NCBI GenBank assembly: GCA_045863855.1
Contig: BTVV01000019.1
Coordinates: forward strand, 11,325 to 75,324
Direction of reading: 5' to 3'
DNA from: Planctomycetota bacterium
GTDB lineage: Bacteria; Planctomycetota; SZUA-567; H5-PLA8
Length of the DNA stretch: 64,000 nucleotides
This document shows positions 18,176 to 33,187 of this stretch, piece by piece. Position 1 is the first letter of the stretch, and each line of letters opens with the position of its first letter. A model generated the notes under the pieces. It did no database searches and had not been told where the DNA came from. It was given only the letters and a program-made list of their open reading frames with translations. Both the position numbers and the translations under genes were made by a program.

Positions 18176-19546
18176 ATGTTGGGTTACATGCGAAATTTGC
18201 GTTCGACGGGCTGGGTTTCGTGCGCCTTGGCGGGTGTGTTGTGCTTAAGCGCCGCAGGGGAGGAAAAGGCGGTTCCCGCGGCAGATCCGCCGCCCCGGCA
18301 TACTCCAACGGATGCGCAAGCCGAACCGGCTGCCGCACCGACGCCGGCCCCTGCCCCCACTCCGGCTCCCGCGCCGGTGACGCCGCCTTTGGTGGCGGCG
18401 CCGAAGCCTCCGGCAGAACCCGCGGGCCGGAAGGTCCCGCCGCTCTCCAAGGAAATCACCGAACGGACGCACCCGCGCTATTTGATGGATCTGGCCGACG
18501 TGGAGCTGCGGTACAACTCGCTGGAGCGCGCGGAAGAACTGCTGAAGCGGGCGCTCGAGTTCAGCGCGCGAGAAGAGGACAAGTTGCTGGCGCAGAGCAA
18601 GCTGGCGGGGCTTTTGGAACGTCTCCAGGACTGGCCGGCGGCGATCGATCTGTACGAAAAGCTGGTGGAATCGGAAAAGAACGCGGGGCAAAAGGCCAAT
18701 TATGCGATGCGCTTGGCGCAGATGTATATGCGCGGCGAACAGTACGATAAGGCCGAAGCGCTGCTGACGCCTCTGGCCGGGGCGGCTCCGGCGGGTGAAC
18801 AGCCCGGGCAGAACGACTGGATCCCGCGTCTTGCGAACGAACGCTTGATGCAGGTTTGGAAGAATCAGCCTGGCCGCTTGGAAGCGATCGTCAAGGAGTG
18901 CGAAGATAAGCTGGCCCAGGATCCCAAGGACATCGCGACGCTGGAGAAGCTTTCGAATCTGTACGGCTCGGCCAAACGCGACCCGGCGAAGTCGACGGAG
19001 ATCCTGCAGAAGCTGGTGGAACTGAAGCCCGACGATCTGGATGCTCGCGACAAGCTCGCGGCGTCGTTGCAGGCCGCCGGAAATCTGGACGGCGCGCTGG
19101 TGCAGTACAAAAAGCTGCTGGAAGCCAAGCCCGGCCCGGAAGGCGCGCGCTTCTCGTACCGCGCGGGACAGATGCTTCTACAAGCCAACCGCAAGGACGA
19201 AGCGGTGGCGCTGGTGAAAGAGCATCTCGACCAGCCCGACGCGCCGGTGGGGAACTTAAACATGCTGGCGGCCTTCTACACGCAGGCGCAGATGACGGAA
19301 CAGGCCGAAGGCGTGTACCTGAAGCTCGCCGAAAAGGCGACGCAGCCGGCGCAGCGCGCGGACTTCCTGCTGCGCGTGGCCGACATGGCGCGGCAGGCGA
19401 AGAACTACGACCGCAGCGAACAGCAGCTGCGCGCGATCCTCGAGCAGTTCAAAGACAATCCCTCGGTCAAAGCGCGGGCGAACCGGTCGCTGGTGCAGCT
19501 CTACGAAGAACAAGGGAAGGTCGGCGAGTTGAAGATCGAAAAGTAG
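18176..19546 (+). CDS. Secreted tetratricopeptide repeat protein
   Basis: Signal peptide, Pro/Ala linker, many TPR-like helical pairs (e.g. LAQMYMRGEQYDKAEALL). Confidence 0.85.
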   Translation: MLGYMRNLRSTGWVSCALAGVLCLSAAGEEKAVPAADPPPRHTPTDAQAEPAAAPTPAPAPTPAPAPVTPPLVAAPKPPAEPAGRKVPPLSKEITERTHPRYLMDLADVELRYNSLERAEELLKRALEFSAREEDKLLAQSKLAGLLERLQDWPAAIDLYEKLVESEKNAGQKANYAMRLAQMYMRGEQYDKAEALLTPLAGAAPAGEQPGQNDWIPRLANERLMQVWKNQPGRLEAIVKECEDKLAQDPKDIATLEKLSNLYGSAKRDPAKSTEILQKLVELKPDDLDARDKLAASLQAAGNLDGALVQYKKLLEAKPGPEGARFSYRAGQMLLQANRKDEAVALVKEHLDQPDAPVGNLNMLAAFYTQAQMTEQAEGVYLKLAEKATQPAQRADFLLRVADMARQAKNYDRSEQQLRAILEQFKDNPSVKARANRSLVQLYEEQGKVGELKIEK

Positions 19547-19597: not shown

Positions 19598-20401
19598 ATG
19601 GCAGGCTGGTTTTTTTCGATTCGAGGCAAGGCGCCGCGTGCGACGGGCGTGCTGCTGGGTTTGGTCCCGGTAGCGGCGCTCCTGGGTTTGTGGTTCGTGC
19701 TGACACACGGCGAAGTGGAAGAGCGCTCGATCAGCCCGACGATCCTGCCAAGCCCCTCGGAAGTCTGGTCGCAGATCCCGGCCTTACGCGACCGCGAGCT
19801 GATCAAGCACACGCTGGCAAGCTTGAAGCGCGTGGGCTTGGGCTACCTGCTGGCGCTGGCGGTCACCTTTCCGCTGGGCGTGCTGATTGGGTCCTTCGGC
19901 AGCGCGCGCGCCCTCTTCAACCCGGCCATGACCGCCAGCGGGTACATTCCCATCGCGACCCTGGTGCCGCTGACGATGAGCTGGTTCGGGACCGGCGAGC
20001 AGATGAAGATCATCTTCCTGGCGCTGGCCTTCGCGATCTACATGCTGCCCCTGTTCGTGAACGCCATCGACGCGGTGCCGGACGTGTATTTGCGCACGGC
20101 GGCGACGCTGGGCGCGAGCCGCTGGGACCAGGTCTGGAGCGTGCTGATTCCGGTGGCGCTGCCGGATATCTGGAACGCGATGCGCCTGGCCTTCGGCGTG
20201 GGCTGGACGTACTTGGTGCTGGCCGAAGTGGTAGTGCTGGACGACGGGCTGGGCTACTTGGTCGAATTCTCGCGCCGGCGCGGCCCGCGAGAGCACATCT
20301 ACCTGATCATTGTGGTGATCACGCTGATTGCCTGGGTGGTGGACTTGGCCTGGGCGAACTTAGGCAAGGTCCTGTTCCCCTATCGGAGCGATCGGCGATG
20401 A
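19598..20401 (+). CDS. ABC transporter permease (NitT/TauT/SsuC type)
   Basis: ILPSPSEV, SLKRVGLGY, EAA-like loop AATLGASRWD, GVGWTYLVLAE. Confidence 0.92.
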   Translation: MAGWFFSIRGKAPRATGVLLGLVPVAALLGLWFVLTHGEVEERSISPTILPSPSEVWSQIPALRDRELIKHTLASLKRVGLGYLLALAVTFPLGVLIGSFGSARALFNPAMTASGYIPIATLVPLTMSWFGTGEQMKIIFLALAFAIYMLPLFVNAIDAVPDVYLRTAATLGASRWDQVWSVLIPVALPDIWNAMRLAFGVGWTYLVLAEVVVLDDGLGYLVEFSRRRGPREHIYLIIVVITLIAWVVDLAWANLGKVLFPYRSDRR

Positions 20402-21249
20402 GCGAGATCAAGGCTCCGCGCACCGGACTTCCGGGATCGGTTGCGACGCCGATCGTCGAATGCCGCAACGTTACCTTAAGCTTCGGAACCTTTACCGCGC
20501 TTCTGGATTTGAACCTGAAGGTTGAAGATCACCTTGGCAAGGGTGAGTTCATCACCATCGTGGGGCCTTCGGGCTGCGGTAAATCGACGTATCTGAACCT
20601 CGTGGCGGGTTTCCTGAAGCCGACCGCAGGCGAAGTGCTGGTGCGCGGCGAGCCGGTCAAGAGCCCCGGGCGCGACCGAGGCTTCATCTTCCAGCAGTAC
20701 AGTTCCTTCCCGCACCTGACGGTGCGCCAAAACGTCCAGTTCGGCCTGAATCTGAACTGGAGCGAGATGGGGATGACGGCGGCCGAGCAGCGCGACCGCG
20801 TGGAAGACTTGATCGCGACGGTTGGCTTGGCCGATCACGCGAAGAAGTATCCGCACCAATTGAGCGGCGGGCAGCAACAGCGGGTGGCCATCGCGCGTTC
20901 GCTGGCCATGGAACCGCGCATCTTGCTGATGGACGAGCCGTTCTCGGCGCTGGACGAACCGACGCGCCTGGACATGCAGGAACTGGTGCTGAAACTCTGG
21001 TCGCGCATTCACCCGACGGTCTTCTGCATCACGCACAGCATCACGGAAGCGGTGTACCTGGGCGAACATGTCTGGATCTTCAGCAACGCGCCAGGGCAGA
21101 TCGCGTACGACATTCGCGAAGGCATCCCGGCCACGCTGGACGTTCCGCCACTGGAAGCGCAGGAAAAGCCGGCCTTTAAGGAAGCGGTACGAGCGGTCAC
21201 GGAGGCGTTTCGGCGGGTGAGCGAAGGCGCGCACCCGAAACGGGCCTAA
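20398..21249 (+). CDS. ABC transporter ATP-binding protein (NitT/TauT type)
   Basis: GPSGCGKST, LSGGQQQR, LLMDEPFSALD, ITHS; ATGA overlap with the permease stop. Confidence 0.93.
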   Translation: MSEIKAPRTGLPGSVATPIVECRNVTLSFGTFTALLDLNLKVEDHLGKGEFITIVGPSGCGKSTYLNLVAGFLKPTAGEVLVRGEPVKSPGRDRGFIFQQYSSFPHLTVRQNVQFGLNLNWSEMGMTAAEQRDRVEDLIATVGLADHAKKYPHQLSGGQQQRVAIARSLAMEPRILLMDEPFSALDEPTRLDMQELVLKLWSRIHPTVFCITHSITEAVYLGEHVWIFSNAPGQIAYDIREGIPATLDVPPLEAQEKPAFKEAVRAVTEAFRRVSEGAHPKRA

Positions 21250-21302
21250 CCCCGGTTTCCCTGCACGTGGCAATAGCCGGTCCGGGCCTTAGAATGCAGC
21301 GC

Positions 21303-22157
21303 ATGAAACCGGGCTTCTGGGATTACGTCAAAGCGGCCTTCAACGCGCGCCCCGCGGGCATGTTTGTGCCGCCAAACTGGGTGGGCTTGGGAGCCTTCGG
21401 ACTGTTGGGCTTGGTCAATCCGGGTTTCTGGGTCATCGGCGCCGGCCTGGAACTGGGCTACCTCTACACCCTTGGGACGAACAAACGCTTCCAGCGCGTG
21501 GTGGACGCGAATGCGCTTAAAAAGAGCCAGAAGTCCTGGATCGACCGCAAAAACGATCTGCTCGGGCGGCTCGACGGCGAAAGCCGGGCATTGTACCGGC
21601 GGCTGGAAGAGCGCTGCCAGACGATCCTGAGCCAGTCGTACGGCGGGACGGCGGCGCCCTCGACAAGCTTGAAAGCTCAGAGCGACGGGCTGGCCCGGCT
21701 GCTCTGGATCTACCTCAAATTGCTGTTCACGCGGCAGCAGATCCGGCACGGCGTGCTGAACGAATCCTCGGGCGACCGCGACGAGATCAAGCAGCGCATC
21801 GCGGACTTGGAGACAAAGCTGAAAGACGAAAATCTCGCCGATAATCTCAAGAAAAGCCTGAGCGGCCAGATGGAAATTCTGCAGCAGCGCCTGACCAAAC
21901 GCGAAGAAGCGCAGGAGAAGCTGGACTTTCTGGACGCCGAACTAACCCGCATCGAAGAACAGGCGGAACTGATTCGCGAACAGGCGGTGCTGAGCACCGA
22001 TCCGGACTCGGTCTCGAACCGGATCGACGAAGTCACGGCGGCGCTGGACGGCACGGCGAGTTGGATTCAACAGCAGCAGAAACTGTACGGCGCGGTGGAA
22101 GACCTGATGGTGGATGCGCCCCCGATCTCGGTCGGCCCGGTGGCGGAGGAAGCCTGA
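21303..22157 (+). CDS. Membrane-anchored coiled-coil protein, translationally coupled to the AAA ATPase
   Basis: N-terminal hydrophobic hairpin then a long charged helical region; TGATG overlap with next gene; start could be 21294. Confidence 0.8.
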   Translation: MKPGFWDYVKAAFNARPAGMFVPPNWVGLGAFGLLGLVNPGFWVIGAGLELGYLYTLGTNKRFQRVVDANALKKSQKSWIDRKNDLLGRLDGESRALYRRLEERCQTILSQSYGGTAAPSTSLKAQSDGLARLLWIYLKLLFTRQQIRHGVLNESSGDRDEIKQRIADLETKLKDENLADNLKKSLSGQMEILQQRLTKREEAQEKLDFLDAELTRIEEQAELIREQAVLSTDPDSVSNRIDEVTAALDGTASWIQQQQKLYGAVEDLMVDAPPISVGPVAEEA

Positions 22158-23890
22158 TGAGCGGCGAACTGGCGGGCTGGGCGGAGGAGATGCGTTCGCT
22201 GTTCCGTTCGGGGAGCGTGGCGCAGTTCATCCTGCACGGCAACATCTTCGACCTCTTCCCCGCCCCGGGCGGCGCCAAGCGCACACTCTCCTTGAAGCAA
22301 TACCTCCAGGAAGTGATGTTCGGCGGCTACGATACGATCCTGACCTACGACCGCGGCAAGGGCGTGCGGGCGGTGAAGGGCGGCGAGGACTGGGGCGAGT
22401 GGCTGGAGCAGTTGACCGGCGAGGAAGACAAGCTCTCGGTGGCGCAGCTTCGTGACAGCTACCGCGCACTGGAGCTGATCGACCGCTATCTGCTGCGAAC
22501 CATGAACCTGCAGGCGCTGACCAAGGGCAAAGCGCAGAAGGTGCCCACTAAAATCGCGGTCCTGATCGAATTCGCGGAGTTCGTCGCGCCGCGCGGCGAT
22601 CCGTTGCAGCTTTCGGGCAACTTCAGCACCAACATCGTCAAGATCTTGGGCTGGGCGAACGATCCGGCAATCCTGCAGTGCAACATCGCGACGGTGCTGC
22701 TCACCGAGGGTTTGCACGATCTGAACGAGCTGCTGGTGGAGAACCCGCACGCCTCGAAACTGCACGTACCCCTGCCCGACGAACGGGAGATGAAGGAATA
22801 CCTCGAGGTCATGACCGAGACCCAGTTCCCGGCGCTGCCCTCGAAATGCGAAGTCCCCATGGATGCGCTGGCGCAGCGGATGACCGGCTTGAGCCGCGTC
22901 GGGGCGCGCACGGTCCTGGCCACCGCGCTGAACAACGACAAGCCGATCACCGCAAAGTGGCTCTCGAACATGAAGAAGGAGATGATCGAGCGCGAATGTG
23001 CGGGGCTTCTGGAGTTCATCGAGTCGGATTGGACGCTGGAGCACGTGGCGGGGCTGGACGCGGCGAAGCAGTGGCTGCGCGAGGACGGCGAACTGCTGCG
23101 TAAGCAGAAACTCCATGCGCTGCCGATGGGCTACCTCATCGCGGGGCGAATCGGGACCGGCAAAACGTTTCTGGTGCGCTGCTGGGCGGGCGAACTGGGC
23201 ATCCCGTGCGTGGTCTTCAAAAACTTCCGCGACCGCTGGGTGGGTGCGACGGAATCGAACCTCGAGAAGATTTTCGGCATTCTGCGTGCGCTGGGGCAGG
23301 TGCTGGTCTTCGTCGACGAAGCCGACCAGGCCGCGGGCAAGCGCGAGGGCGGCAGCGGCGACAGCGGCCTGTCGGGCCGCGTGTATTCGATGCTCGCGAA
23401 AGAGATGTCGGACACCGCCAATCGCGGCAAGATCGTCTGGATCTTCGCCACCAGCCGTCCGGACCTGCTGGAAGTGGACCTGAAGCGTCAGGGCCGCCTG
23501 GACGTCCATATCCCGCTCTTCGCGCCGCAGACGGCCGACGAGATGAAAGTGCTTCTGAGCGCGGTGGCGAAGAAGCTCAAGTTCCCGCTCAAGACCGAAG
23601 ACCTGCCGGATCTGCCAGAAGGCCTGCAGTTGGGCGGCAACGAGCTGGAAGGCATACTGGTCCGTGCGCTGCGCGTGTACGAACTGTCGGAGCCCAAGAA
23701 GCCGCTGAAAGAAATCCTGGGCGACGTGATCAAGGAAGTGCGTCCCAGCGCGCATTCGCGCAAACTGGAATACATGGATCTGGTGGCGGTCAAAGAATGC
23801 ACGGACTCGCGATTCCTCCCCGAGCGCTTCCAGAAACTCTCTCCGGAAGAATTGGAATTCCGAATCGACGAACTGCGCCGATTTGTATAA
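22157..23890 (+). CDS. AAA+ ATPase with an N-terminal degenerate AAA-like domain
   Basis: Walker A GRIGTGKT, pore loop RWVGATE, Walker B VFVDEAD, sensor/arginine finger ATSRPDLL..DLKRQGRLD. Confidence 0.92.
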   Translation: MSGELAGWAEEMRSLFRSGSVAQFILHGNIFDLFPAPGGAKRTLSLKQYLQEVMFGGYDTILTYDRGKGVRAVKGGEDWGEWLEQLTGEEDKLSVAQLRDSYRALELIDRYLLRTMNLQALTKGKAQKVPTKIAVLIEFAEFVAPRGDPLQLSGNFSTNIVKILGWANDPAILQCNIATVLLTEGLHDLNELLVENPHASKLHVPLPDEREMKEYLEVMTETQFPALPSKCEVPMDALAQRMTGLSRVGARTVLATALNNDKPITAKWLSNMKKEMIERECAGLLEFIESDWTLEHVAGLDAAKQWLREDGELLRKQKLHALPMGYLIAGRIGTGKTFLVRCWAGELGIPCVVFKNFRDRWVGATESNLEKIFGILRALGQVLVFVDEADQAAGKREGGSGDSGLSGRVYSMLAKEMSDTANRGKIVWIFATSRPDLLEVDLKRQGRLDVHIPLFAPQTADEMKVLLSAVAKKLKFPLKTEDLPDLPEGLQLGGNELEGILVRALRVYELSEPKKPLKEILGDVIKEVRPSAHSRKLEYMDLVAVKECTDSRFLPERFQKLSPEELEFRIDELRRFV

Positions 23891-23976
23891 CGAAATGCGC
23901 GGGCGGGGGCCGCCGGCGGTGTAATCCGGGTAGCGCGGCGTAACGGCTGAATCGAGAACCCCGGGAAGCCCATGCT

Positions 23977-26799
23977 ATGAAGCCGATGACCTGCTGGACG
24001 TTGATATGCGCGTTGCCCGCCTTGGCGCTGGCCGCACATGAAGAGGCTTCGCTGATCGATGGCGCTCAGCCCTTGGGCGGGTGGAGTTTCCTGAACGGCC
24101 CCGAATTCCCGGGCGCCAAGGGCGAACTGGCGCTGCTGCCGGACGCCGCGGGGGACGGGCAACCCGGATTGAAGCTTTCCGGCGATTTCACCGGCGGCGG
24201 AAATTACGTGCAAGCCACCCGGGAGTTCAAGAGCGCCGGGGCGGAGCGGCTTTCCTTCAAGCTCAAGGCGCCGGGCACCACGAAGCTGACCATCCGGCTG
24301 ATCGACGACAGCCAGCAATGCCACCAGATCGATCTGAAGTTCGAGCCGCGCGACGACTGGCGCGAGATCGATTTCCCCTTGGCTGAATTCTTCAAACGCA
24401 TGGGCACTTCGGCCGCGGTGCCGAACGTTTCGCGCTACGAGAAATGGGGCGGCAAAAACGATGGCAAATTCCACGCTCCGGCCCGCGCGATGGGCATTCT
24501 GGTGAGCAAACATACGAAGCCCAACGACCTGAAGCCCGTGATAGAACTGAGCGGCATCCGCATCCTGGGCGCGGCTTCGGCGTATGCGGAGAATTTCGAA
24601 TCGGCCGCGGCGCTGCCGCAAGGCTGGTCGGCCAAGGGCGCAGTCTCGGTTGAGGCAGTAGGCGCACCCCAAGGCAAGCATGCGCTCAAGTTGAGCCGCG
24701 CGCTCGAAAATTTGCAGGACGAGACCGGCGCCGTCGCCGCGGCCTTCACGGCCGCACCAGGCTTTTGGGCGATTCGCGGAACAACCCGGACGGAACTGAA
24801 TTCGCCGGACAGTTCGTACAACCTGACGGTCGGTGTGGAGGCGCTCAAAACCGGGGGCGGCGTGATCGAGACGCTGGCGGTGCACGAGCCCTTCGGCAGG
24901 ACGAGTTGGACGGCGTTCGAGAAGAAAGTCGAATTGCCCGCGGGTACCGCGGCGGCACGCCTGACCGTGCGCTTGAACAAGGCCGATGGCGCGGCGTGGA
25001 TCGACGAACTGTCGGTTGCGCCGATCGCGCAGGATTACGAAAAGCGAGTGGAGCGGATCGTGATCTCTTCAGGGCGGCTTGGACACCTTTTTCTGCCCGA
25101 CGACAAGCCGGTATTCCAAGTGCAGGTGGAGACCGTACGCGCGTTGCGCGAGCCCGAAGCGCGGCTGTCGTTCGCGGTGCTGGATTATTGGGGCGCTGAG
25201 CAGGCCGCTTCCGCAGAAACGAAACTCATCGAAAAGCAAAAGACGGGGCAGAACGTGACGTACTCCGCCGAGGTGGACCTTTCCGGATTACCGCTGGAAG
25301 TAGGCCGCTACTACGAATTGCACCTCGGCGTGCCGCGCGAAAAGGGGCCGGAAGAAACCGAATACGCCGGCTTCGCGAAGCTGCCTGAGGCCGTTACGGC
25401 AAAGCACAAACCGGAGGATCTGCCGTTCACGATCCGCAACTGGGACAATCGCGTGCCAGACTATCTGCGCCTTTCGGCGCGTTTGGGCATCCGAACCATC
25501 GGGCTCTGGTGCGGCTGGGACTCGAAGGCGCCGTACAAGCCGAACGCGCCCTGCCTGGACTTGTGCCAGGAACTCGGTGCACGCTGGATCTCCACGACTC
25601 CGGCGGCTTCGGTGGAGCGCGTGGGGTTCAAGGAGTACGACGAGACGGCGTTGCGCGAAGGGATGCGGAATTTCCTTAAGACGTTCGGCGACAAAAAACC
25701 GTACCTTATCGCGCTGGGCAACGAACCCCATGGCAAACTGGAGAAGGTAAAGGAGAATGTCCGCGCCTATCGGATTCTCTACGAAGCGATCAAGGCGCAC
25801 GATCCGGAAATCTTCGTGATCGGCACCTCGGTGGAACCGAACGAAGACTACTTCAATCTCGGCTACTACAAATACCTCGACGCCTACGATTTCCACATTT
25901 ACGAGCATCACACCAACGTGCGCAAGACGATGCAGGCCTACAAAAATTTGATGGAGCGACATAACGCGGTGAAACCGCTGTACTCGACGGAACTGGGCCT
26001 AAACAGCCAGGGTCAGCCGCGCCACGACGTGGCGGTAAGCCTGGTGAAAAAGCTGACGGTCTTCTTCGCGGAGGGCGGCGCGAACGTCTCCTGGTTCACG
26101 ATCAATTACCCCGATCCGAAAGGCAAAGCGCGCGGCTCGTCGGGCGACTCGCACTGCGTATTCGACTGCAAGTACAGCAAATACAATCCGCGCCTCGACG
26201 CGGTGATGTACTACTGGATGGTGAACGGGATCGAGGTCAAGAAATTCGTGCAAGAGCGCGTGTACGCGGACGGAACCGAAGCCTACCTGTTTCGAGATGC
26301 GGAAGGCCAGTGCCTGCAGATTCTATGGAACGAGAAAGCTGCGCCGGTCGTGGCGCTGGGGCTGCCCGGGGTGGCCCGTGCCGAACTGATTCGCATCGAC
26401 GGCAGCCGCGCCGAGTTAAAGCCTTTGGACGGAAAGCTGAATGTAGGCGTGTCGAACGAGCCGGTTTTGCTGCGCTACATCCAGAAGGACGGAGCGCTGG
26501 CCGAGACTTTGGGCGAGCCGGCGTTTAAAGCGGTTCCGCCGCCCAAGGCGCTGGCGAAGGGACAAACGCATGCGTTCGTACTGGAAGGCGCGAAGCTCGC
26601 GCCGGCGCAATTCCGGGCCATCGCGCCGCCGCTTTGGAAAACGGAGCTGAACGCGAAGGAAGGCGGCGGTGTCGAATGCCGCTTGGAGATTCCGGCGGAT
26701 ACCCGGGCGCGCGAAGCGCGAATCACGCTTCAGTACGTCCCGTCCGATGCCGCGATGGCGGGCGAAGCCACGCTAACGTTGCCTTTGGGCGGTCCGTGA
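23977..26799 (+). CDS. Large secreted glycoside hydrolase (clan GH-A-like) with N-terminal CBM-like modules
   Basis: Signal peptide; LGNEPH (acid/base), DFHIY, YSTELG (nucleophile); two jelly-roll-like N-terminal regions. Confidence 0.7.
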   Translation: MKPMTCWTLICALPALALAAHEEASLIDGAQPLGGWSFLNGPEFPGAKGELALLPDAAGDGQPGLKLSGDFTGGGNYVQATREFKSAGAERLSFKLKAPGTTKLTIRLIDDSQQCHQIDLKFEPRDDWREIDFPLAEFFKRMGTSAAVPNVSRYEKWGGKNDGKFHAPARAMGILVSKHTKPNDLKPVIELSGIRILGAASAYAENFESAAALPQGWSAKGAVSVEAVGAPQGKHALKLSRALENLQDETGAVAAAFTAAPGFWAIRGTTRTELNSPDSSYNLTVGVEALKTGGGVIETLAVHEPFGRTSWTAFEKKVELPAGTAAARLTVRLNKADGAAWIDELSVAPIAQDYEKRVERIVISSGRLGHLFLPDDKPVFQVQVETVRALREPEARLSFAVLDYWGAEQAASAETKLIEKQKTGQNVTYSAEVDLSGLPLEVGRYYELHLGVPREKGPEETEYAGFAKLPEAVTAKHKPEDLPFTIRNWDNRVPDYLRLSARLGIRTIGLWCGWDSKAPYKPNAPCLDLCQELGARWISTTPAASVERVGFKEYDETALREGMRNFLKTFGDKKPYLIALGNEPHGKLEKVKENVRAYRILYEAIKAHDPEIFVIGTSVEPNEDYFNLGYYKYLDAYDFHIYEHHTNVRKTMQAYKNLMERHNAVKPLYSTELGLNSQGQPRHDVAVSLVKKLTVFFAEGGANVSWFTINYPDPKGKARGSSGDSHCVFDCKYSKYNPRLDAVMYYWMVNGIEVKKFVQERVYADGTEAYLFRDAEGQCLQILWNEKAAPVVALGLPGVARAELIRIDGSRAELKPLDGKLNVGVSNEPVLLRYIQKDGALAETLGEPAFKAVPPPKALAKGQTHAFVLEGAKLAPAQFRAIAPPLWKTELNAKEGGGVECRLEIPADTRAREARITLQYVPSDAAMAGEATLTLPLGGP

Positions 26800-26874
26800 A
26801 ACACCGATCGGTTCTTGGCCAACGGCCGCGCACGGCATAGGGTTTAGGGCCAAATCGCATCGAGGAGCTTCGCC

Positions 26875-27537
26875 ATGTCCTTGTCCGACAAGCTTTTTGC
26901 CTTGGGCGGAAAGCTCGGCATTTTAAAAGTATCGGCTCCCAAAGTAGCCGCTGCGCAGCAAGCGGGCCCCGTGAAGTTGCAGATGCGTACCATCACGCTG
27001 GCGGAGTTGTCGCGCGAAGTGAATGCTCCGGGCTTGCAACACTTGGCCCAGCAGCCCGATTTCCTCGCCGCGCCGCTATCCGATATCTACGTGGCGGCGG
27101 GGCTGCATCCGCCTGAAAACGGATGGGGCGTGGAGCGCCTGACCGAACATCTGAAAAGCCCGGCTTTGAATGGACTTTCGCGCGCCGAGGTTCAGGCCGA
27201 ACTGTCGGGCATGTTCGTCTCTCCGGCGTCGGTGGAGGACGTGCTGCGCGAAGCCTTGGGGCGCGACCAGGCGCTGGACCGCTTCGAGGCCGTGGCCAAG
27301 CAGAAGCTCGAAGAACGCGCGGCTCGGCGCGCAAAGGAAGTAGCCGACCTGGAGCAGCGCATCGTCGAGTTGCAGGCGGCGCTGGGCAAACTCAAGCAGG
27401 AAGCCGCTGCGGCGGCGGCGCTCGATGCCGAACACTGGAACGCTTGGTTGGCGGCTAAAGATGCGGCTGAGGCGGAACTGGAGTGGACCGTTAGCTTCCT
27501 GACCGAAAAGCCCATTGTCACGAGAAACGGCTCTTGA
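26875..27537 (+). CDS. Hypothetical coiled-coil protein upstream of pspA
   Basis: GAGGAG RBS; amphipathic N-terminus, DIYVAAGL.PP..GW.VE, RDQALDRFE, long heptad helix. Confidence 0.75.
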   Translation: MSLSDKLFALGGKLGILKVSAPKVAAAQQAGPVKLQMRTITLAELSREVNAPGLQHLAQQPDFLAAPLSDIYVAAGLHPPENGWGVERLTEHLKSPALNGLSRAEVQAELSGMFVSPASVEDVLREALGRDQALDRFEAVAKQKLEERAARRAKEVADLEQRIVELQAALGKLKQEAAAAAALDAEHWNAWLAAKDAAEAELEWTVSFLTEKPIVTRNGS

Positions 27538-27648
27538 CCGAACCGACCGGCCTTGGATTTCAGCCCGGGTTCGCCGAAAGCCTTAAATCTCTATTCTGAT
27601 ACATAGTGCGGACCCGCAGGACCGGCTAAAAGGTGGGGCCGGAAAGGC

Positions 27649-27677
27649 TTGTGAGCGGCGCACCGGCTGGCTACAAT
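27649..27677 (+). promoter_or_regulatory. Sigma70-like promoter upstream of pspA
   Basis: TTGTGA-N17-TACAAT, 40 nt before ATG 27718. Confidence 0.5.
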
Positions 27678-27717
27678 GCCTGCATTGCTGCTTACTCGAA
27701 GAAGGAATACAAGCGCC

Positions 27718-28518
27718 ATGGCTTTCTTTGCGCGTATCGGACGTTTGTTCAAGGGCTTTCTGGGCCTCTTCGTCAGCGGCCTGGAAGAAGCCAACCCCGA
27801 AGCCTTGATGGAGGCTGCGCGGCAGGAATTCCGCGACAAGATGGCGCAATACAACATGGCGCTGGCGCGGATGGCCGGCATCGCCGAACGTCTCAAGACC
27901 CAAATCAAGACCAAAAGCACGAAGCTGAAGGATCTGGAGCGGCGGGTGCTGGCCAACCACCGTGCAGGGAACCTGCAACTCGCCGGTTCGTTGGCACGCG
28001 AGCTTCAAGAAACCCGCGCCGACCTCGAAAACGATACGGCCGAATTGAAGGATACCGAAGAGGCCTATACGGCCAATCTGCGCCAGGCGAAGGTCGTCCA
28101 GAAAGAGTTCGAAGAAAAGGTCCGCCGCCTGGAGAAGCAGCTCTCGCAGGTGAAGATCAAGGAAGCGCAAGCCGAAGCGGCCGCGGCGCTGGGCAGCGTA
28201 TCGTTCGAAATCGGCGACATGGGCGACACGATGAAGACGGTGGAGGAGGTTCTGAACAAGCGCTACGAAGTATCGGCGGGCAAAGCGCGAGTAGCCAAGG
28301 ACATCGTGGACATGGAAAAACTGAACGCCAAGGAAAGCGAAGAGAAGGCGCTGGAGTCCGCGGCGCTGGCGGAATTCCTGGCCGAGCAAGGTATCCAGGC
28401 TCCGGGTTTGCCCGATGCGGCGCAGAAGGAGATGGGACCCGGCGCCACCGAAGCCGCTCCGGGCGTGAAAGAAATGGGACCGGCGAGTCAGTCGGAAAGC
28501 CCCCAAGCCGGTTCTTAG
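27718..28518 (+). CDS. pspA: PspA/IM30 (Vipp1/ESCRT-III superfamily) protein
   Basis: Amphipathic N-terminus MAFFARIGRLFKG, EEANPEALME, long coiled coil, AGNLQLAGSLA, low-complexity C-terminal tail; AAGGA RBS. The symbol denotes family, not proven orthology. Confidence 0.88.
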   Translation: MAFFARIGRLFKGFLGLFVSGLEEANPEALMEAARQEFRDKMAQYNMALARMAGIAERLKTQIKTKSTKLKDLERRVLANHRAGNLQLAGSLARELQETRADLENDTAELKDTEEAYTANLRQAKVVQKEFEEKVRRLEKQLSQVKIKEAQAEAAAALGSVSFEIGDMGDTMKTVEEVLNKRYEVSAGKARVAKDIVDMEKLNAKESEEKALESAALAEFLAEQGIQAPGLPDAAQKEMGPGATEAAPGVKEMGPASQSESPQAGS

Positions 28519-28591
28519 CCCGTGCGCAAGACGGCTGTACTCAATGCATCTGCGATTTCGAATCGTCAAAACGTAAACGCGAGGAACCATC

Positions 28592-30355
28592 ATGTCGGAT
28601 GAAGCCGGAAGTTCTCTGACGCCGTTGGGCAAGCTGATCTCGATCGTCCTGATCCTCGGTTTGGTGGGTCTGGGCGTCTATATCGTGATGGGCAAGGGCG
28701 AAACCCCTAAGCCCTCCGGCTCCGGACCGGTCTCGAAGAAAACCGGAGATGGGCCGGCGCCCGACGGGCCCGAGATTCCTCCGCCGCCCGGCGAGAGCTT
28801 GGAAGCGCCCGACCTGACGGGCATCACGACGGTAAAGGAGTACAAATACGTCCCGGCCGACAAACTGCCGCCGGTGAAGGGCGCGGCGGCGTACAAGTGG
28901 GATGAAAAGAACAAGACCTTCGTCTTCAGCTACAACGTCTGGGCTGGCTGGCTTCCGGTCATCGCCGCCAACCACGGCACCGAGCCGAACGAAGAAAGCG
29001 TCTTCTTCAAGAAGTACGGTTTCAATGTACAGATGAAGCTGATGGACGATCCGGTCGCGGCGCGCGATGCGTTCGCGGCGGGCGAAGTACATAGTATGTG
29101 GGGCACCGTGGACATGCTGGTGCTCTTCGCGGGCGAACTGCTGCGCGACAGCCGGACGAGTCCGCGCATCGTACAGCAGGTGGACTGGTCCAGCGGCGGC
29201 GATGGGATCGTGGTCAGGACGAAGTCCATCAAGAGTGTAAAGGACCTGGCCGGCAAGACGGTGACGCTGGCCCAGAATGCGCCGAGCGAATACTACCTTA
29301 CCTCGCTCCTGCTGAGCGCCGGGATGAAGCCGGCAGACATCAAGCCCAAGTACACCGCTACGGCTTTCGAGGCCGCGGCGGCGTTCGTGAGCGATCCCAG
29401 CGTGCACGCTTGCGTGACGTGGGCGCCGGACATCTACAACATTCCCGAACGCGTGGCGGGAACCAAGATCCTCAGCAGCACCGCCGACGCGAACAAGCTG
29501 ATCGCCGACGTCTACGCGGTGCGCGCGGACTTCGTGCGCGACCACCCGGAGATCGTCGAGGGCCTCGTGGCGGGGATCTTCGAAGGCATGGACATGGTCA
29601 AGGCCGATCCCGCGCCGGCGTGCGCATGGATGGCCGCGGCGTTCCAGATGACGCCGCAGGAAGTGGACGGCATGCGCGGCGACTTCCACACCACCAACTT
29701 CGCCGAAAACGTGCAGTTCTTCCTGAACCAGTCGAACCCGACCAACTTCGAGCGTACCTGGAGCAACGCGGGCTACGTGTACCGCAAGCTGGGCCGCATG
29801 GATGCGCCGGTGAACTTCGACCAGGTGATGGACTTCGGCTTCGTGAAGAAGCTGCAGGAAAAAGGCACGTTCAAGCACCACCAGGACGAGAACGTCGCGA
29901 GCTTCACGCCCGGCGCGGTTAAGCAGATCGCCGAGGCTCCCATTCTGACCCAGACGATCCGGATCAACTTTTTCCCGAACAGCGCCAACCCGTACGAGGG
30001 CGCGCGCGATCAGTTCGGCAATCTGGTGGCCGGAAAGCTGTACGACCCGAACGTCGACGCGACGCTGGAGCAGTGCGCGCGGCTCTCGGGCCAGTTCGAC
30101 CGCGCCGTGGTCCTGATCGAAGGTCACACCGATTCGAGCATGCGCGGCAAAGTTCCCGAGGACGCGGTGAAGCGCCTCAGTCTCGACCGCGCCAACTCGA
30201 TCAAGCAGGCGTTGATCGAGAAGTTCAAGTTCGACCCGAACAAGTTTATCGTGAAGGGCATCGGCTGGGAAAAAGCCTTCGATCCGAACCAGCCGGACAA
30301 CCACACGCTCAACCGCCGCGTGGAGATCAGCATCTTCCCGCCGGAACAGCAATAG
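28592..30355 (+). CDS. ABC substrate-binding protein (NMT1/SsuA-like) fused to C-terminal OmpA-like domain
   Basis: N-terminal TM anchor and Pro linker; WAGWLP, DWSSGGDGIV, ACVTWAP; C-terminal INFFPNS, IEGHTDS, LSLDRANSIK, NRRVEI. Confidence 0.9.
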   Translation: MSDEAGSSLTPLGKLISIVLILGLVGLGVYIVMGKGETPKPSGSGPVSKKTGDGPAPDGPEIPPPPGESLEAPDLTGITTVKEYKYVPADKLPPVKGAAAYKWDEKNKTFVFSYNVWAGWLPVIAANHGTEPNEESVFFKKYGFNVQMKLMDDPVAARDAFAAGEVHSMWGTVDMLVLFAGELLRDSRTSPRIVQQVDWSSGGDGIVVRTKSIKSVKDLAGKTVTLAQNAPSEYYLTSLLLSAGMKPADIKPKYTATAFEAAAAFVSDPSVHACVTWAPDIYNIPERVAGTKILSSTADANKLIADVYAVRADFVRDHPEIVEGLVAGIFEGMDMVKADPAPACAWMAAAFQMTPQEVDGMRGDFHTTNFAENVQFFLNQSNPTNFERTWSNAGYVYRKLGRMDAPVNFDQVMDFGFVKKLQEKGTFKHHQDENVASFTPGAVKQIAEAPILTQTIRINFFPNSANPYEGARDQFGNLVAGKLYDPNVDATLEQCARLSGQFDRAVVLIEGHTDSSMRGKVPEDAVKRLSLDRANSIKQALIEKFKFDPNKFIVKGIGWEKAFDPNQPDNHTLNRRVEISIFPPEQQ

Positions 30356-30381
30356 TCCGCATTCGGTCCGTCCGAGCACCG

Positions 30382-30420
30382 GAGGCCGGGGCGCGTAGCG
30401 CGTCCCGGCCTCTTCCTTTA
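30382..30420 (+). terminator. Probable intrinsic terminator closing the pspA-SBP/OmpA unit
   Basis: GAGGCCGGG-GCGCG-TAG-CGCGT-CCCGGCCTC hairpin followed by TTCCTTTA. Confidence 0.55.
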
Positions 30421-30484
30421 TATGCGCCATCAGGCCGGACTTTCCGGTATACTGGCTGCGTACGTTCGAGGACGGACCCGCCGC

Positions 30485-33187
30485 ATGAGCCACGCCCCCG
30501 CCCCATCGCCGTCGCTGCGCCCAAGCTGGCAGGGCTACGCCGTCGCTTCGCCTTTGCCCGCGGCGGAAGCCGCGCCCGAGCCGGAAGGCCCGCAGGGCGA
30601 ATACAACCTCCAGGCGCCCGAAGCGCCGCTCTCGGTGCCGCTCCTGCCGGAGCAGGCGCCTGCCCGTCCCGCGGAGTTGCTCGCGCCGGCTGGCGGTTTC
30701 GACGCGGCGTGCGCCGCCTTCTATTACGGGGCCGACGCGATTTACCTGGGGCTTCAGAAGTTTTCGGCGCGCGCCGAAGCGCAAAATTTCACGCTCGAAG
30801 AACTGGACGTCATCACCGCCTTCGCGCACAGCCTGACCCCGCGGCGGCGCGTCTTCGTGACGCTGAACACGCTGATCCTGCAGCACGAACTCCGTGAACT
30901 GGTGGATACCGTCGCGGCGCTGGAAGACATCGGCGTCGATGCGGTGATTCTGCAGGATCTCGGCGTGTACGGCCTGCTGCGCAAACATTTCCCTGCGATC
31001 GAACTCCACGGCAGCACGCAGATGGCGGTGCATAACCGCGCGGGCGCCGAAGCGCTGCGCGCTATGGGCTTCGCGCGCGTGGTCCTGGCGCGCGAGTTGA
31101 CCTTCGAGGAAGTGAACGAGATCACGGCCACCTCTGGAGTGGAGACCGAAGTTTTTGTCCACGGAGCGTTGTGCTACAGCTACAGCGGGCTGTGCCTGTT
31201 CAGCTCGCAGCAAGTGGGCCGCAGCGGCAACCGCGGCAAGTGCGCGTACACGTGCCGCGACAGCTACACCGTCGAAGGCGCGCCCGAGACCCTGCGCGAC
31301 GGAGCGCCGACGAAGCGCGATCCGGGCAACGGATTCCCGTTCAGCATGAAGGATCTGGCGTTGCCCGACCATCTGCCCGCGTTGCGGGCCGCAGGCGTGA
31401 GCTGCTTCAAGATCGAAGGGCGCAAGAAAAGCCCGCTCTACGTCGCCACCACCACCGACTATTACCGCGGCCTGCTGGACGGTTCGATCGCGCCCGAAGA
31501 TCGCGCAGCACGCGAAGCCGATCTCCAGACGGTTTTCAGCCGCCCGTGGACGCGCCTGTTCGTGCAGTCGCACCGCGACAAGGAAGTAGCCGACCGCGAT
31601 ACCGTGGGGCATCGCGGGACGCCGGTGGGCGAAGTCGATCGGGTGGTGAACGACCGCCACGGACAGCCGTGGCTGCGCTTTCGCTCCGATCGCGCACTCG
31701 AGCGGCACGACGGATTGCAGATCGATCTGCCGACGCTCGGCCGGCCGTTCGGCTTTGCCGTCGAAGAACTCCGCGTCATGGACGGCCGCGACAACTCCGA
31801 GCGCGCGTACGAAGCCCCGGCCGGAAGCCGCGTAGAGGTCAAGCTGCCCGAAGACCATCCGCCGCTTCCGCAAGGCGCGGCCGTCTACTGCTCCAGTTCG
31901 CAGGACGTGAAGCGCCGTTTTGCTTTCGACCGGCCCAATCCAAGCAAGTTCCGCTCCCGGCGCGACGTTAGCGTCGAGCTGACCCTGAATCGCGATGCAC
32001 TGGCGGTGATGCTGCGAGTGCCGGCGCGGCACGAACGCGAGGAAGCCATCGAAGTCCGCGAGACGTTGCCCGGCCCGTTTGAGGCGGCGCGCGATGCGGC
32101 GGGCACCGAAAAAGCGGTGCGGCAGGCTTTCGAAAAGCTGGGCGAGACGCGCTTCGAGCTGGCGGCGTTGGATCTGCGCAATCCGGACGGGCTCTTCGTA
32201 CCCGCATCGAAACTCAATGCGCTGCGCCGCGATCTCTGCGCGCGCGCCGAAGCGGAACTCCAAGCGCGCGGCAAGCGGCGCCTGGATACGCTGTGGGCCG
32301 AAACCGAGCCGCGCGCCAAAAAATCCTCGGGCGAGCGTTCCGCGTTCGTTTGGGCGCTGAAGACCGATCGCATCGGAGCGCTGGAAGCGCTGGAGGACGC
32401 GGACTTCGAAGGCCTCGACGAGATGGTGGTGGACATCGCCCGCGACGGACTGGCGGCGCTGGAGCCCCAACTGGAGGCGCTGTCCGCGCGCTTGGGCCGC
32501 GAACGCATCCGTCTGGCGCTGCCTGCCCTGACGCGAAAGTGGGAAGAACGGCAACTCGTACACAAGATCGAGAAGCTCCGCGCCGCCGGTTGGACGAAGT
32601 GGGAACTTGCCAACGTCTCGGGCTGGACGTTCCTGGGCGTGCCCCCGGAAGCCGCAGCCGTCCGCGCGGCGGGCTTGGATCTGGCCGCGGACTGGTCGCT
32701 GTACGCGATCAACCGGCTGGCCGTTCAGCAACTGGCCGAGATGGGCGCCGCGCGCTTTGTCTGTTCGCCCGAGGACGGCTTGGAGAATCTGCGCTCGCTG
32801 CTGGGCGAATTCGCCGGGCAGGCCACCGTGATCGTGCATCAGGACACGCCGCTCTTTTTGGCGGAGAGCTGCGCATACGCCAATTTAATCGGCGGCTGCC
32901 CGGGCAAAGCCAATTGCCGCTTCGAGCAGATGGCGCTCACGAGCAGCTTTGGCGAACGCTTCCTGGCGCTGGATTACCACTGCCGGACCATCGTGCTCAG
33001 CGAAGGCGCCTACTGTCTCTCGCCGCGATTGAAGGATCTGGCCGCCGCCGGCGCACGGAACCTGCGCGCGGAATTCGTATACCGCGCTTACGAGCCCGGC
33101 GAGTTGCGCGAGCGTTGGCGCCAGATCCGCGCCGGCAGGAATGTGCCTCAAGGCCACTGCGCCAACTTCGACCGCGGATTACTGTAG
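30485..33187 (+). CDS. Peptidase U32 family protein with DUF3656 (RlhA-like RNA hydroxylation factor)
   Basis: ELLAPAG, GADAIYLG, HGSTQ, LARELT, HGALCYSYSGLC..RSGNRGKCAYTCR, KIEGRKK. Confidence 0.88.
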   Translation: MSHAPAPSPSLRPSWQGYAVASPLPAAEAAPEPEGPQGEYNLQAPEAPLSVPLLPEQAPARPAELLAPAGGFDAACAAFYYGADAIYLGLQKFSARAEAQNFTLEELDVITAFAHSLTPRRRVFVTLNTLILQHELRELVDTVAALEDIGVDAVILQDLGVYGLLRKHFPAIELHGSTQMAVHNRAGAEALRAMGFARVVLARELTFEEVNEITATSGVETEVFVHGALCYSYSGLCLFSSQQVGRSGNRGKCAYTCRDSYTVEGAPETLRDGAPTKRDPGNGFPFSMKDLALPDHLPALRAAGVSCFKIEGRKKSPLYVATTTDYYRGLLDGSIAPEDRAAREADLQTVFSRPWTRLFVQSHRDKEVADRDTVGHRGTPVGEVDRVVNDRHGQPWLRFRSDRALERHDGLQIDLPTLGRPFGFAVEELRVMDGRDNSERAYEAPAGSRVEVKLPEDHPPLPQGAAVYCSSSQDVKRRFAFDRPNPSKFRSRRDVSVELTLNRDALAVMLRVPARHEREEAIEVRETLPGPFEAARDAAGTEKAVRQAFEKLGETRFELAALDLRNPDGLFVPASKLNALRRDLCARAEAELQARGKRRLDTLWAETEPRAKKSSGERSAFVWALKTDRIGALEALEDADFEGLDEMVVDIARDGLAALEPQLEALSARLGRERIRLALPALTRKWEERQLVHKIEKLRAAGWTKWELANVSGWTFLGVPPEAAAVRAAGLDLAADWSLYAINRLAVQQLAEMGAARFVCSPEDGLENLRSLLGEFAGQATVIVHQDTPLFLAESCAYANLIGGCPGKANCRFEQMALTSSFGERFLALDYHCRTIVLSEGAYCLSPRLKDLAAAGARNLRAEFVYRAYEPGELRERWRQIRAGRNVPQGHCANFDRGLL

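Follow-up and report, generated by a model that had tools for sequence, protein, structure and literature searches.

A block of eight genes (positions 19598–30420, + strand), encoding a PspA protein of the ESCRT-III superfamily together with a tandem AAA+ ATPase, was analysed in a stretch of 64,000 nucleotides from a Planctomycetota bacterium (contig BTVV01000019.1, assembly GCA_045863855.1, positions 11,325–75,324, forward; hereafter the window). The block also encodes a membrane-anchored coiled-coil protein (labelled TMCC), a second coiled-coil protein (CC2), a solute-binding protein fused to an OmpA-like domain (SBP-OmpA), the permease and ATPase of an ATP-binding cassette (ABC) importer, and an inserted 940-amino-acid (aa) protein. 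The block is read, with confidence evenly balanced, as an envelope-maintenance module in which PspA would form polymers at the inner membrane, likely to be unfolded and recycled by a tandem ATPase of Cdc48 type dedicated to them, possibly through docking on the K-x-[IML]-G-P motif that the PspA tail carries. The cluster itself has been known in silico since 2024, apparently without experiment; added here are the PspA tail motif, a transporter-less clade and the non-recovery of the Snf7 label published for the membrane protein.

PspA, the tandem ATPase and their linkage

By sequence, the product of the gene at 27718 is a true PspA/Vipp1 homologue over helices 0–5, in line with its earlier placement in the PspA/ESCRT-III superfamily. 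PF04012 covered positions 3–218 of 220 (32.3 bits, marginally below the cut-off of 33.9) and matched 34/34 aligned members of the same PspA subfamily (best 1.5e-23); the top three matches of the PspA profile in the PDB were Vipp1 structures (E 5.6e-6). The N-terminal amphipathic helix (hydrophobic moment 0.75 at residues 4–14) aligned with the Vipp1 N-terminus, and the protein was the sole PF04012 match in the genome.

The ATPase comprises two AAA+ domains (D1 and D2). D2 carried Walker A (GRIGTGKT), Walker B (VFVDE), aromatic pore loop (DRWVG) and KRQGR motifs, conserved in 69 aligned homologues; Walker A/B, the arginine fingers and a W/Y pore loop were kept in all motif variants listed. This motif set is that of protein-threading, classic-clade AAA+ enzymes. 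D1 (approximately residues 1–287) was degenerate, with HGN replacing Walker A, no GKT, and the Walker B DE absent. Fold prediction of the N-terminal half (42-row alignment) gave an AAA+ alpha/beta domain (predicted local distance difference test, pLDDT, 93.4) whose model matched proteasome ATPases, Rix7 and p97 by Foldseek (E 1.7e-8). Because of this predicted fold and the missing catalytic motifs, the N-terminal half was assigned as a degenerate AAA+ domain and not as an MIT domain. The best PDB matches of the ATPase were Cdc48, VAT and p97 (E 3e-35); Vps4 was absent from the best 60 of 268. NCBIfam scores were 71 bits for FtsH, 70.4 for CDC48 and 35 for CdvC, all far below cut-off, and the family scan found no DNA-binding domain. 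Judged by sequence and fold model, the ATPase has the layout of a type II unfoldase that lacks the N-domain. The Vps4 parallel drawn in a preliminary description of the block was rejected as an identity: the enzyme is Cdc48-like, with no MIT domain, a tandem and not a single cassette, and a higher Cdc48 than CdvC score.

Linkage was measured in loci and in whole genomes. A GTDB genome scan with the ATPase gave 183 relatives, of which the best 80 (57–99% identity) were used; these came from Planctomycetota, Acidobacteriota and Gemmatimonadota, with single Chlorobiales and Burkholderiales records, the nearest named loci being planctomycetal. Among these 80 loci, which are kin picked for closeness to the window, the raw counts were TMCC 75, PspA 73, SBP-OmpA 69, CC2 30 and permease 24. 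Restricted to loci with enough flank, TMCC lay upstream of the ATPase in 71/73, PspA after it in 66/67, and SBP-OmpA was present in 59/61, so that the co-occurrence check proposed in the preliminary description came out positive; the linkage of the core genes is far beyond chance. Dyads of PspA and ATPase with none of the other genes nearby were found at L102, L105, L174 and L180, and AEY64321.1 is a further dyad in Table S3 of Ravi et al. (2024; PMC11237479).

Two whole-genome samples, independent of adjacency, were searched in addition. Among 41 near relatives the ATPase was present in 17, TMCC in 15, and the PspA subfamily and SBP-OmpA in 14 each, the last three always within the 17. Among 121 genomes drawn evenly across the phylum, 21 had an ATPase match at E<=1e-50, of which 15 lay at E<=1e-145 and six at 1e-89 or weaker (a division set after the scores were seen). 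The PspA subfamily occurred in 15/15 of the strong-ATPase genomes (14 by genome search; G042 on reading its locus) and in 0/106 others. TMCC, searched with a narrower profile, occurred in 9/121, all among the same 15. Proteins matching PF04012 at all were far wider (32/121, with ordinary PspAs in many of the 106 genomes without a strong ATPase), and the ATPase link is therefore specific to the PspA subfamily.

Several features were recorded beside the ATPase and pspA genes of other loci. The six weaker genomes (G023, G045, G062, G086, G105 and G131) carry a tandem-AAA subfamily further removed from the window protein (E 1e-59 to 1e-89) and neither the PspA subfamily nor TMCC. Two tandem pspA copies follow the ATPase gene at L011:11922-13771, the first with an aberrant C-terminus, and the locus has no SBP gene; it may be an assembly artefact. 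Four tandem short open reading frames (ORFs) sharing a Gly/Ser-rich repeat stand beside a stand-alone ATPase gene at L101:11298-13175 and resemble repeated peptide precursors. In two operons that are divergent but complete, the next product after the ATPase is a conserved acidic protein of 95 aa (L233:3630-3914 and L234:10129-10416), and an exported protein of about 275 aa precedes pspA in L231, L232 and L234.

The tail motif K-x-[IML]-G-P sits beyond helix 5 of PspA, after a variable, poorly conserved Pro/Ala linker, and the window protein carries two copies of K-E-M-G-P. The strict motif was present in 62/62 close PspAs and 10/11 divergent PspAs from near relatives (down to 21–36% identity), in 18/12,892 background frames, and in 0/23 other PspA/IM30 proteins, most of which stop at helix 5. 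That so short a motif is retained in a disordered stretch hints at a binding site. According to a review (PMC7619361), archaeal and eukaryotic Vps4 is recruited by the C-terminal tails of ESCRT-III, and by analogy the ATPase would be the partner of the tail motif, with the motif as a candidate docking site.

Core genes, the importer and two subtypes

ORF calling and family scans returned the features in Table 1. The seven genes listed in the preliminary description were all found, all on the + strand, as were the TGATG (22155–22159) coupling the TMCC and ATPase genes and, for the terminator at the block end, a terminator-like hairpin (-32.5 kcal/mol, z -3.96), matched in stability by 0/200 shuffles. 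That description had overlooked the degenerate N-terminal AAA+ domain and an eighth gene, the 940-aa ORF between the ATPase and CC2 genes. Its statement that pspB, pspC, pspF and LiaRS genes are absent held for the block and its surroundings, where the search was confined to 13 proteins; no ClgR was found in the block.

Table 1. Features of the block (window coordinates).
Feature	Position	Strand	Remarks
ABC permease, NitT/TauT (TauC/SsuC-like)	19598-20401	+	PF00528 E 9e-18
ABC ATPase of same importer	20398-21249	+	PF00005 E 4e-34; TauB/NtrCD-like; ATGA overlap with permease
TMCC, membrane-anchored helical coiled-coil protein	21303-22157	+	alternative start 21294
Tandem AAA+ ATPase	22157-23890	+	PF00004 at residues 327-453
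Predicted secreted clan GH-A-like glycoside hydrolase, 940 aa (inserted passenger)	23977-26799	+	
CC2, second coiled-coil protein	26875-27537	+	no known family
PspA/IM30 (ESCRT-III superfamily)	27718-28518	+	PF04012 E 1e-7, 32.3 bits
SBP-OmpA fusion	28592-30355	+	PF09084 138-341; PF00691 489-570
Terminator-like hairpin	30381-30413	+	15 pairs, 12 G-C; modest U tail

SBP-OmpA consists of an NMT1/SsuA-type SBP with one hydrophobic segment (residues 15–33) as anchor and a C-terminal OmpA-like domain. In the latter, aligned to Acinetobacter baumannii OmpA (3td3), D514 and R533 were invariant in 48/48 sequences; we take these to correspond to the conserved Asp and Arg of the diaminopimelate-binding site in OmpA-like domains. 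The genome carries murE. The permease has five hydrophobic segments, with SaoP and TauC as best NCBIfam matches, both below cut-off. A TauC/SsuC-like permease, a TauB-like ATPase and an NMT1/SsuA-type SBP are together the components of a NitT/TauT importer, no equivalog cut-off being reached.

The 80 loci were divided by SBP identity to the window protein into subtype A (>60%; 26/80) and subtype B (<35%; 42/80); 12/80 showed no SBP, mostly for want of flank. The permease was present in 21/26 subtype A loci, the five without it being cut short on one side. In subtype B the ABC pair was present in 0/42 loci, with TMCC, the ATPase, PspA and SBP-OmpA retained and the SBP still bearing its anchor and OmpA-like domain. 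A cognate permease was found in 0/10 subtype B genomes (best match 142 bits, in an unrelated ABC locus), as against 5/5 positive-control genomes (296–412 bits). In an ATPase tree of 55 rows that omitted half of the B rows, the subtype B sequences grouped as a single clade (support 87) inside lineages that bear the transporter; a tree with 40 B rows had the same shape and negligible support for the subtype B branch. The core of TMCC, ATPase, PspA and SBP-OmpA thus persists without the importer. Since the whole subtype B clade lacks the ABC pair, ABC import is likely accessory and its coupling to the core not obligatory; of the ABC/SBP-OmpA module that the preliminary description had coupled to the remodelling proteins, SBP-OmpA stays with the core in that clade and the transporter does not. 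Residues of the SBP cleft differed between the subtypes, so no single conserved SBP ligand is indicated. The transporter-less clade places the putatively wall-tethered SBP-OmpA in the core and points to a sensing or anchoring role.

CC2 is a marker of subtype A (26/26 loci; 0/42 in subtype B). Its start lay <=6 bp from the ATPase stop in 25/28 loci, and it had no named relatives, matching only unnamed Atlas clusters.

TMCC was modelled by AlphaFold as all-helical (pLDDT 85.7), with an N-terminal hydrophobic hairpin and a long helical bundle; its C-terminal acidic/proline tail, D-L-[LM]-x-[ED]-P-P-P, is conserved. At least 2,175 relatives were found. Sequence, profile and fold tests recovered no Snf7 or PspA match, a result which does not exclude Snf7 homology; in position and membrane anchor the protein agrees with the "SIG+TM+Snf7" protein of Ravi et al. 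(PMC11237479). The Atlas ranked the Rv2743c/PspM cluster second for TMCC (0.87; 183 shared features; 40% of members carrying the family), a lead left unconfirmed by the PF25587 (PspM/Rv2743c) hidden Markov model, which gave no TMCC match in six genomes. At L230:135-4003 (G014), and also in P0244, P0250 and P0251, the gene of a TMCC relative comes after one for a predicted SBP-vWA fusion and another for an anchored SBP-like protein, and neither a PspA nor an ATPase gene adjoins it. The pairing of a transmembrane coiled-coil protein with an anchored SBP is possibly a module that other envelope systems employ as well.

The 940-aa gene is read as a lineage-specific inserted passenger outside the system. 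It was present in 1/80 related loci (the 99%-identical L001), and in L002 the ATPase and CC2 genes were adjacent, with no insertion, the homologue that bears the same locus-tag prefix being on a contig of another length. The protein had no Pfam match and carries N-E-P and E-L-G motifs, presumably of clan GH-A type; the prediction is of a glycoside hydrolase that is secreted and resembles clan GH-A. At least 123 homologues were found, the named ones mostly from Planctomycetota, Verrucomicrobiota and Lentisphaerae and some with PF06452, PF11790 or PF00150. The family is mostly unannotated, with no Pfam model for most members, and the window member is predicted to have carbohydrate-binding-like modules.

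Of the flanking genes, an exported TPR protein (18176–19546, +) and a 900-aa U32-family protein (30422/30488–33187, +; RlhA/TrhP-like, PF01136 and PF12392) accompany the block in the two nearest relatives and in no others. Opposite the SBP-OmpA and U32 genes runs an open frame of 1432 codons (28541–32839, -), in all likelihood a GC-rich shadow frame of a kind seen again in related loci.

Weighing of the possible mechanisms

We infer from the sequences, with about an even chance of being right, that the ATPase acts on PspA; recycling of PspA is the most likely role because the product of the 27718 gene is a true PspA homologue, the link between the two is very tight and the threading D2 is intact. 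In such a mechanism PspA would coat or seal the inner membrane as a polymer, and the ATPase would bind the PspA tail and thread subunits through D2, D1 or its surface serving as the substrate-binding ring in place of an MIT domain. The membrane-anchored SBP-OmpA would be tethered to peptidoglycan and mark or sense periplasmic sites, and TMCC would relay its state to the cytoplasm and position PspA and the ATPase, in the manner of mycobacterial PspM or LiaI. The ABC pair and CC2 would be an accessory importer sharing the SBP where present. A bolder version is held only tentatively and is the less probable of the two: that bacteria independently evolved a Vps4 equivalent, in which a dead first ring replaces the MIT domain, reads the K-x-[IML]-G-P tail of PspA and disassembles the polymers, switched through TMCC by a peptidoglycan-tethered SBP that is not mainly a transporter subunit.

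A number of observations weigh against PspA recycling through the tail. All the evidence on mechanism is association and motif conservation. The family scan gave no MIT match in the ATPase, whose residues 1–287 fold as AAA+ instead, and the mode of recognition must be assumed. Among 16 PspA loci of the phylum sample, eight had the strict motif, six a relaxed form (e.g. K-T-I-G-E), one none, and one was a fragment; PspA of G042 lacks the motif, and G042 and G073 have a different ending. The relaxed pattern occurred in 6/23 ordinary PspAs and is hence unspecific. The motif tracks a PspA clade, and common ancestry could by itself account for its association with the ATPase. Split operons were common in near relatives, the ATPase gene standing alone in 9/13 stretches; TMCC mostly remained with the permease, ABC and SBP genes, and PspA was alone or beside the ATPase. 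The ATPase gene is translationally coupled to TMCC and not to PspA, and TMCC, with its own conserved tail, could be the true partner or substrate. As to the accessory status of the importer, subtype B is one clade and counts as a single loss event, and the ten subtype B genomes are metagenome-assembled genomes of unstated completeness.

The coupling to TMCC would suit an ATPase that is a Cdc48/Msp1-like extractor, recruited by TMCC and pulling damaged or stalled membrane proteins (TMCC, SBP or permease) while PspA seals in parallel and is not a substrate. The TMCC and ATPase genes overlap in 37/73 loci, TMCC has its acidic/proline tail, and the closest solved relatives (Cdc48, VAT and p97) and tandem architecture fit. 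PspA, however, tracks the ATPase more tightly (15/15) than does TMCC (9/15, with the narrower profile), TMCC remains with the SBP and ABC genes in split operons, and some of its relatives occur in the vWA-SBP context with no adjoining ATPase (L230), so that extraction is judged rather unlikely. Ligand loading or uptake could instead be the purpose, with the SBP-OmpA/ABC complex surrounded by membrane buds or invaginations that PspA and the ATPase shape. The importer looks ancestral, given that the divergent loci L231, L233 and L234 keep the full order PspA, SBP-OmpA, permease, ABC, TMCC, ATPase and that subtype B is nested inside transporter-bearing lineages; an SBP (ProX) is described as accompanying some archaeal ESCRT loci (PMC11188069), and a solute-transport link is proposed by Ravi et al. 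(PMC11237479). The retention of the other genes in 42/42 subtype B loci and 10/10 genomes without the cognate permease, and the differing cleft residues, make this reading improbable.

The tight PspA–ATPase linkage is also fitted by a regulatory role, in which PspA would bind the ATPase in the way that E. coli PspA inhibits PspF and come off on envelope stress, the ATPase acting on other targets; PspA–PspF is given as the one known bacterial PspA/AAA+ pair (PMC7619361). Such regulation has a small probability here, the ATPase being classic-clade with a threading pore loop and no DNA-binding domain, and a sigma-54 consensus occurring in 0/69 loci upstream of the first gene and in 0/64 upstream of pspA. 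An anti-phage defence island is very improbable: the weak IetA ATPase profile matches on D2 (E 3e-14) reflect generic AAA+ likeness only, TMCC, CC2 and SBP had no defence-family match (PspA had one weak coiled-coil match), the GC content of the block is like that of the rest of the window, and the ATPase tree groups largely by phylum. Recycling of PspA by the ATPase has become a directly testable question, for which the operon class offers a ready candidate enzyme, and the tail motif reduces the idea to an inexpensive test that needs a pair of soluble proteins and a single small deletion.

Comparison with known systems

The architecture, raised as possibly novel in the preliminary description, had already been described: Ravi et al. 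(2024; PMC11237479) report in silico a PspA operon class with an inactive-AAA+AAA protein, a membrane-anchored divergent Snf7 protein, an ABC ATPase, a permease and a PBPB-OmpA protein, and liken it to Snf7/Vps4. The window shares all six components, including PspA with the inactive/active AAA+ protein, SIG+PBPB+OmpA, permease and ABC ATPase; the tools used here did not reproduce the Snf7 label given there to the membrane protein. The row OGG56892.1 of their Table S3 has the same gene order as L231, L233 and L234, of which the window order is a circular permutation (break between SBP and permease) with CC2 and the inserted hydrolase gene added. Neither the tail motif nor the transporter-less ATPase clade is mentioned in the consulted parts of their text and supplement. 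No experimental study of the operon class was found in the full-text literature, most subscription journals lying outside its coverage, and no mention of the tail motif was noticed there, no search having been aimed at the motif itself. A phage PspA study (bioRxiv 10.64898/2026.10.24.761521) leaves AAA unmentioned in its main text. In the consulted parts of two reviews, a Vps4-like ATPase for PspA/Vipp1 polymers is said to appear absent in bacteria (2025; PMC7619361) and the control of polymer disassembly to be unclear (2026; PMC13051332).

The mycobacterial ClgR-PspA-PspM and E. coli PspABC/PspF systems share with the block a PspA that has a membrane partner, PspM being described as supporting membrane association of a PspA species (PMC13622631); they differ in having no unfoldase or SBP-OmpA, and the block has no ClgR, PspB, PspC or PspF. 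With Cdc48/p97/VAT the window ATPase shares two AAA+ domains per chain, the D2 motifs with a threading pore loop, and the best PDB matches. It differs in that no double-psi-barrel N-domain precedes D1, the chain opening directly with an AAA+ fold, and D1 lacks the catalytic motifs. The PspA tail motif is, as we take it, unlike MIM1/MIM2. Archaeal and eukaryotic ESCRT-III with Vps4 (CdvB/CdvC) have in common with the window an ESCRT-III protein, a short conserved motif in a flexible C-terminal tail, and a paired classic-clade AAA+ enzyme with an aromatic pore loop. The window system departs from them in an ATPase that, in place of an MIT domain, carries a degenerate and an active AAA+ domain in tandem and stands nearer Cdc48 (70 bits) than CdvC (35 bits), and in its periplasmic SBP-OmpA partner.

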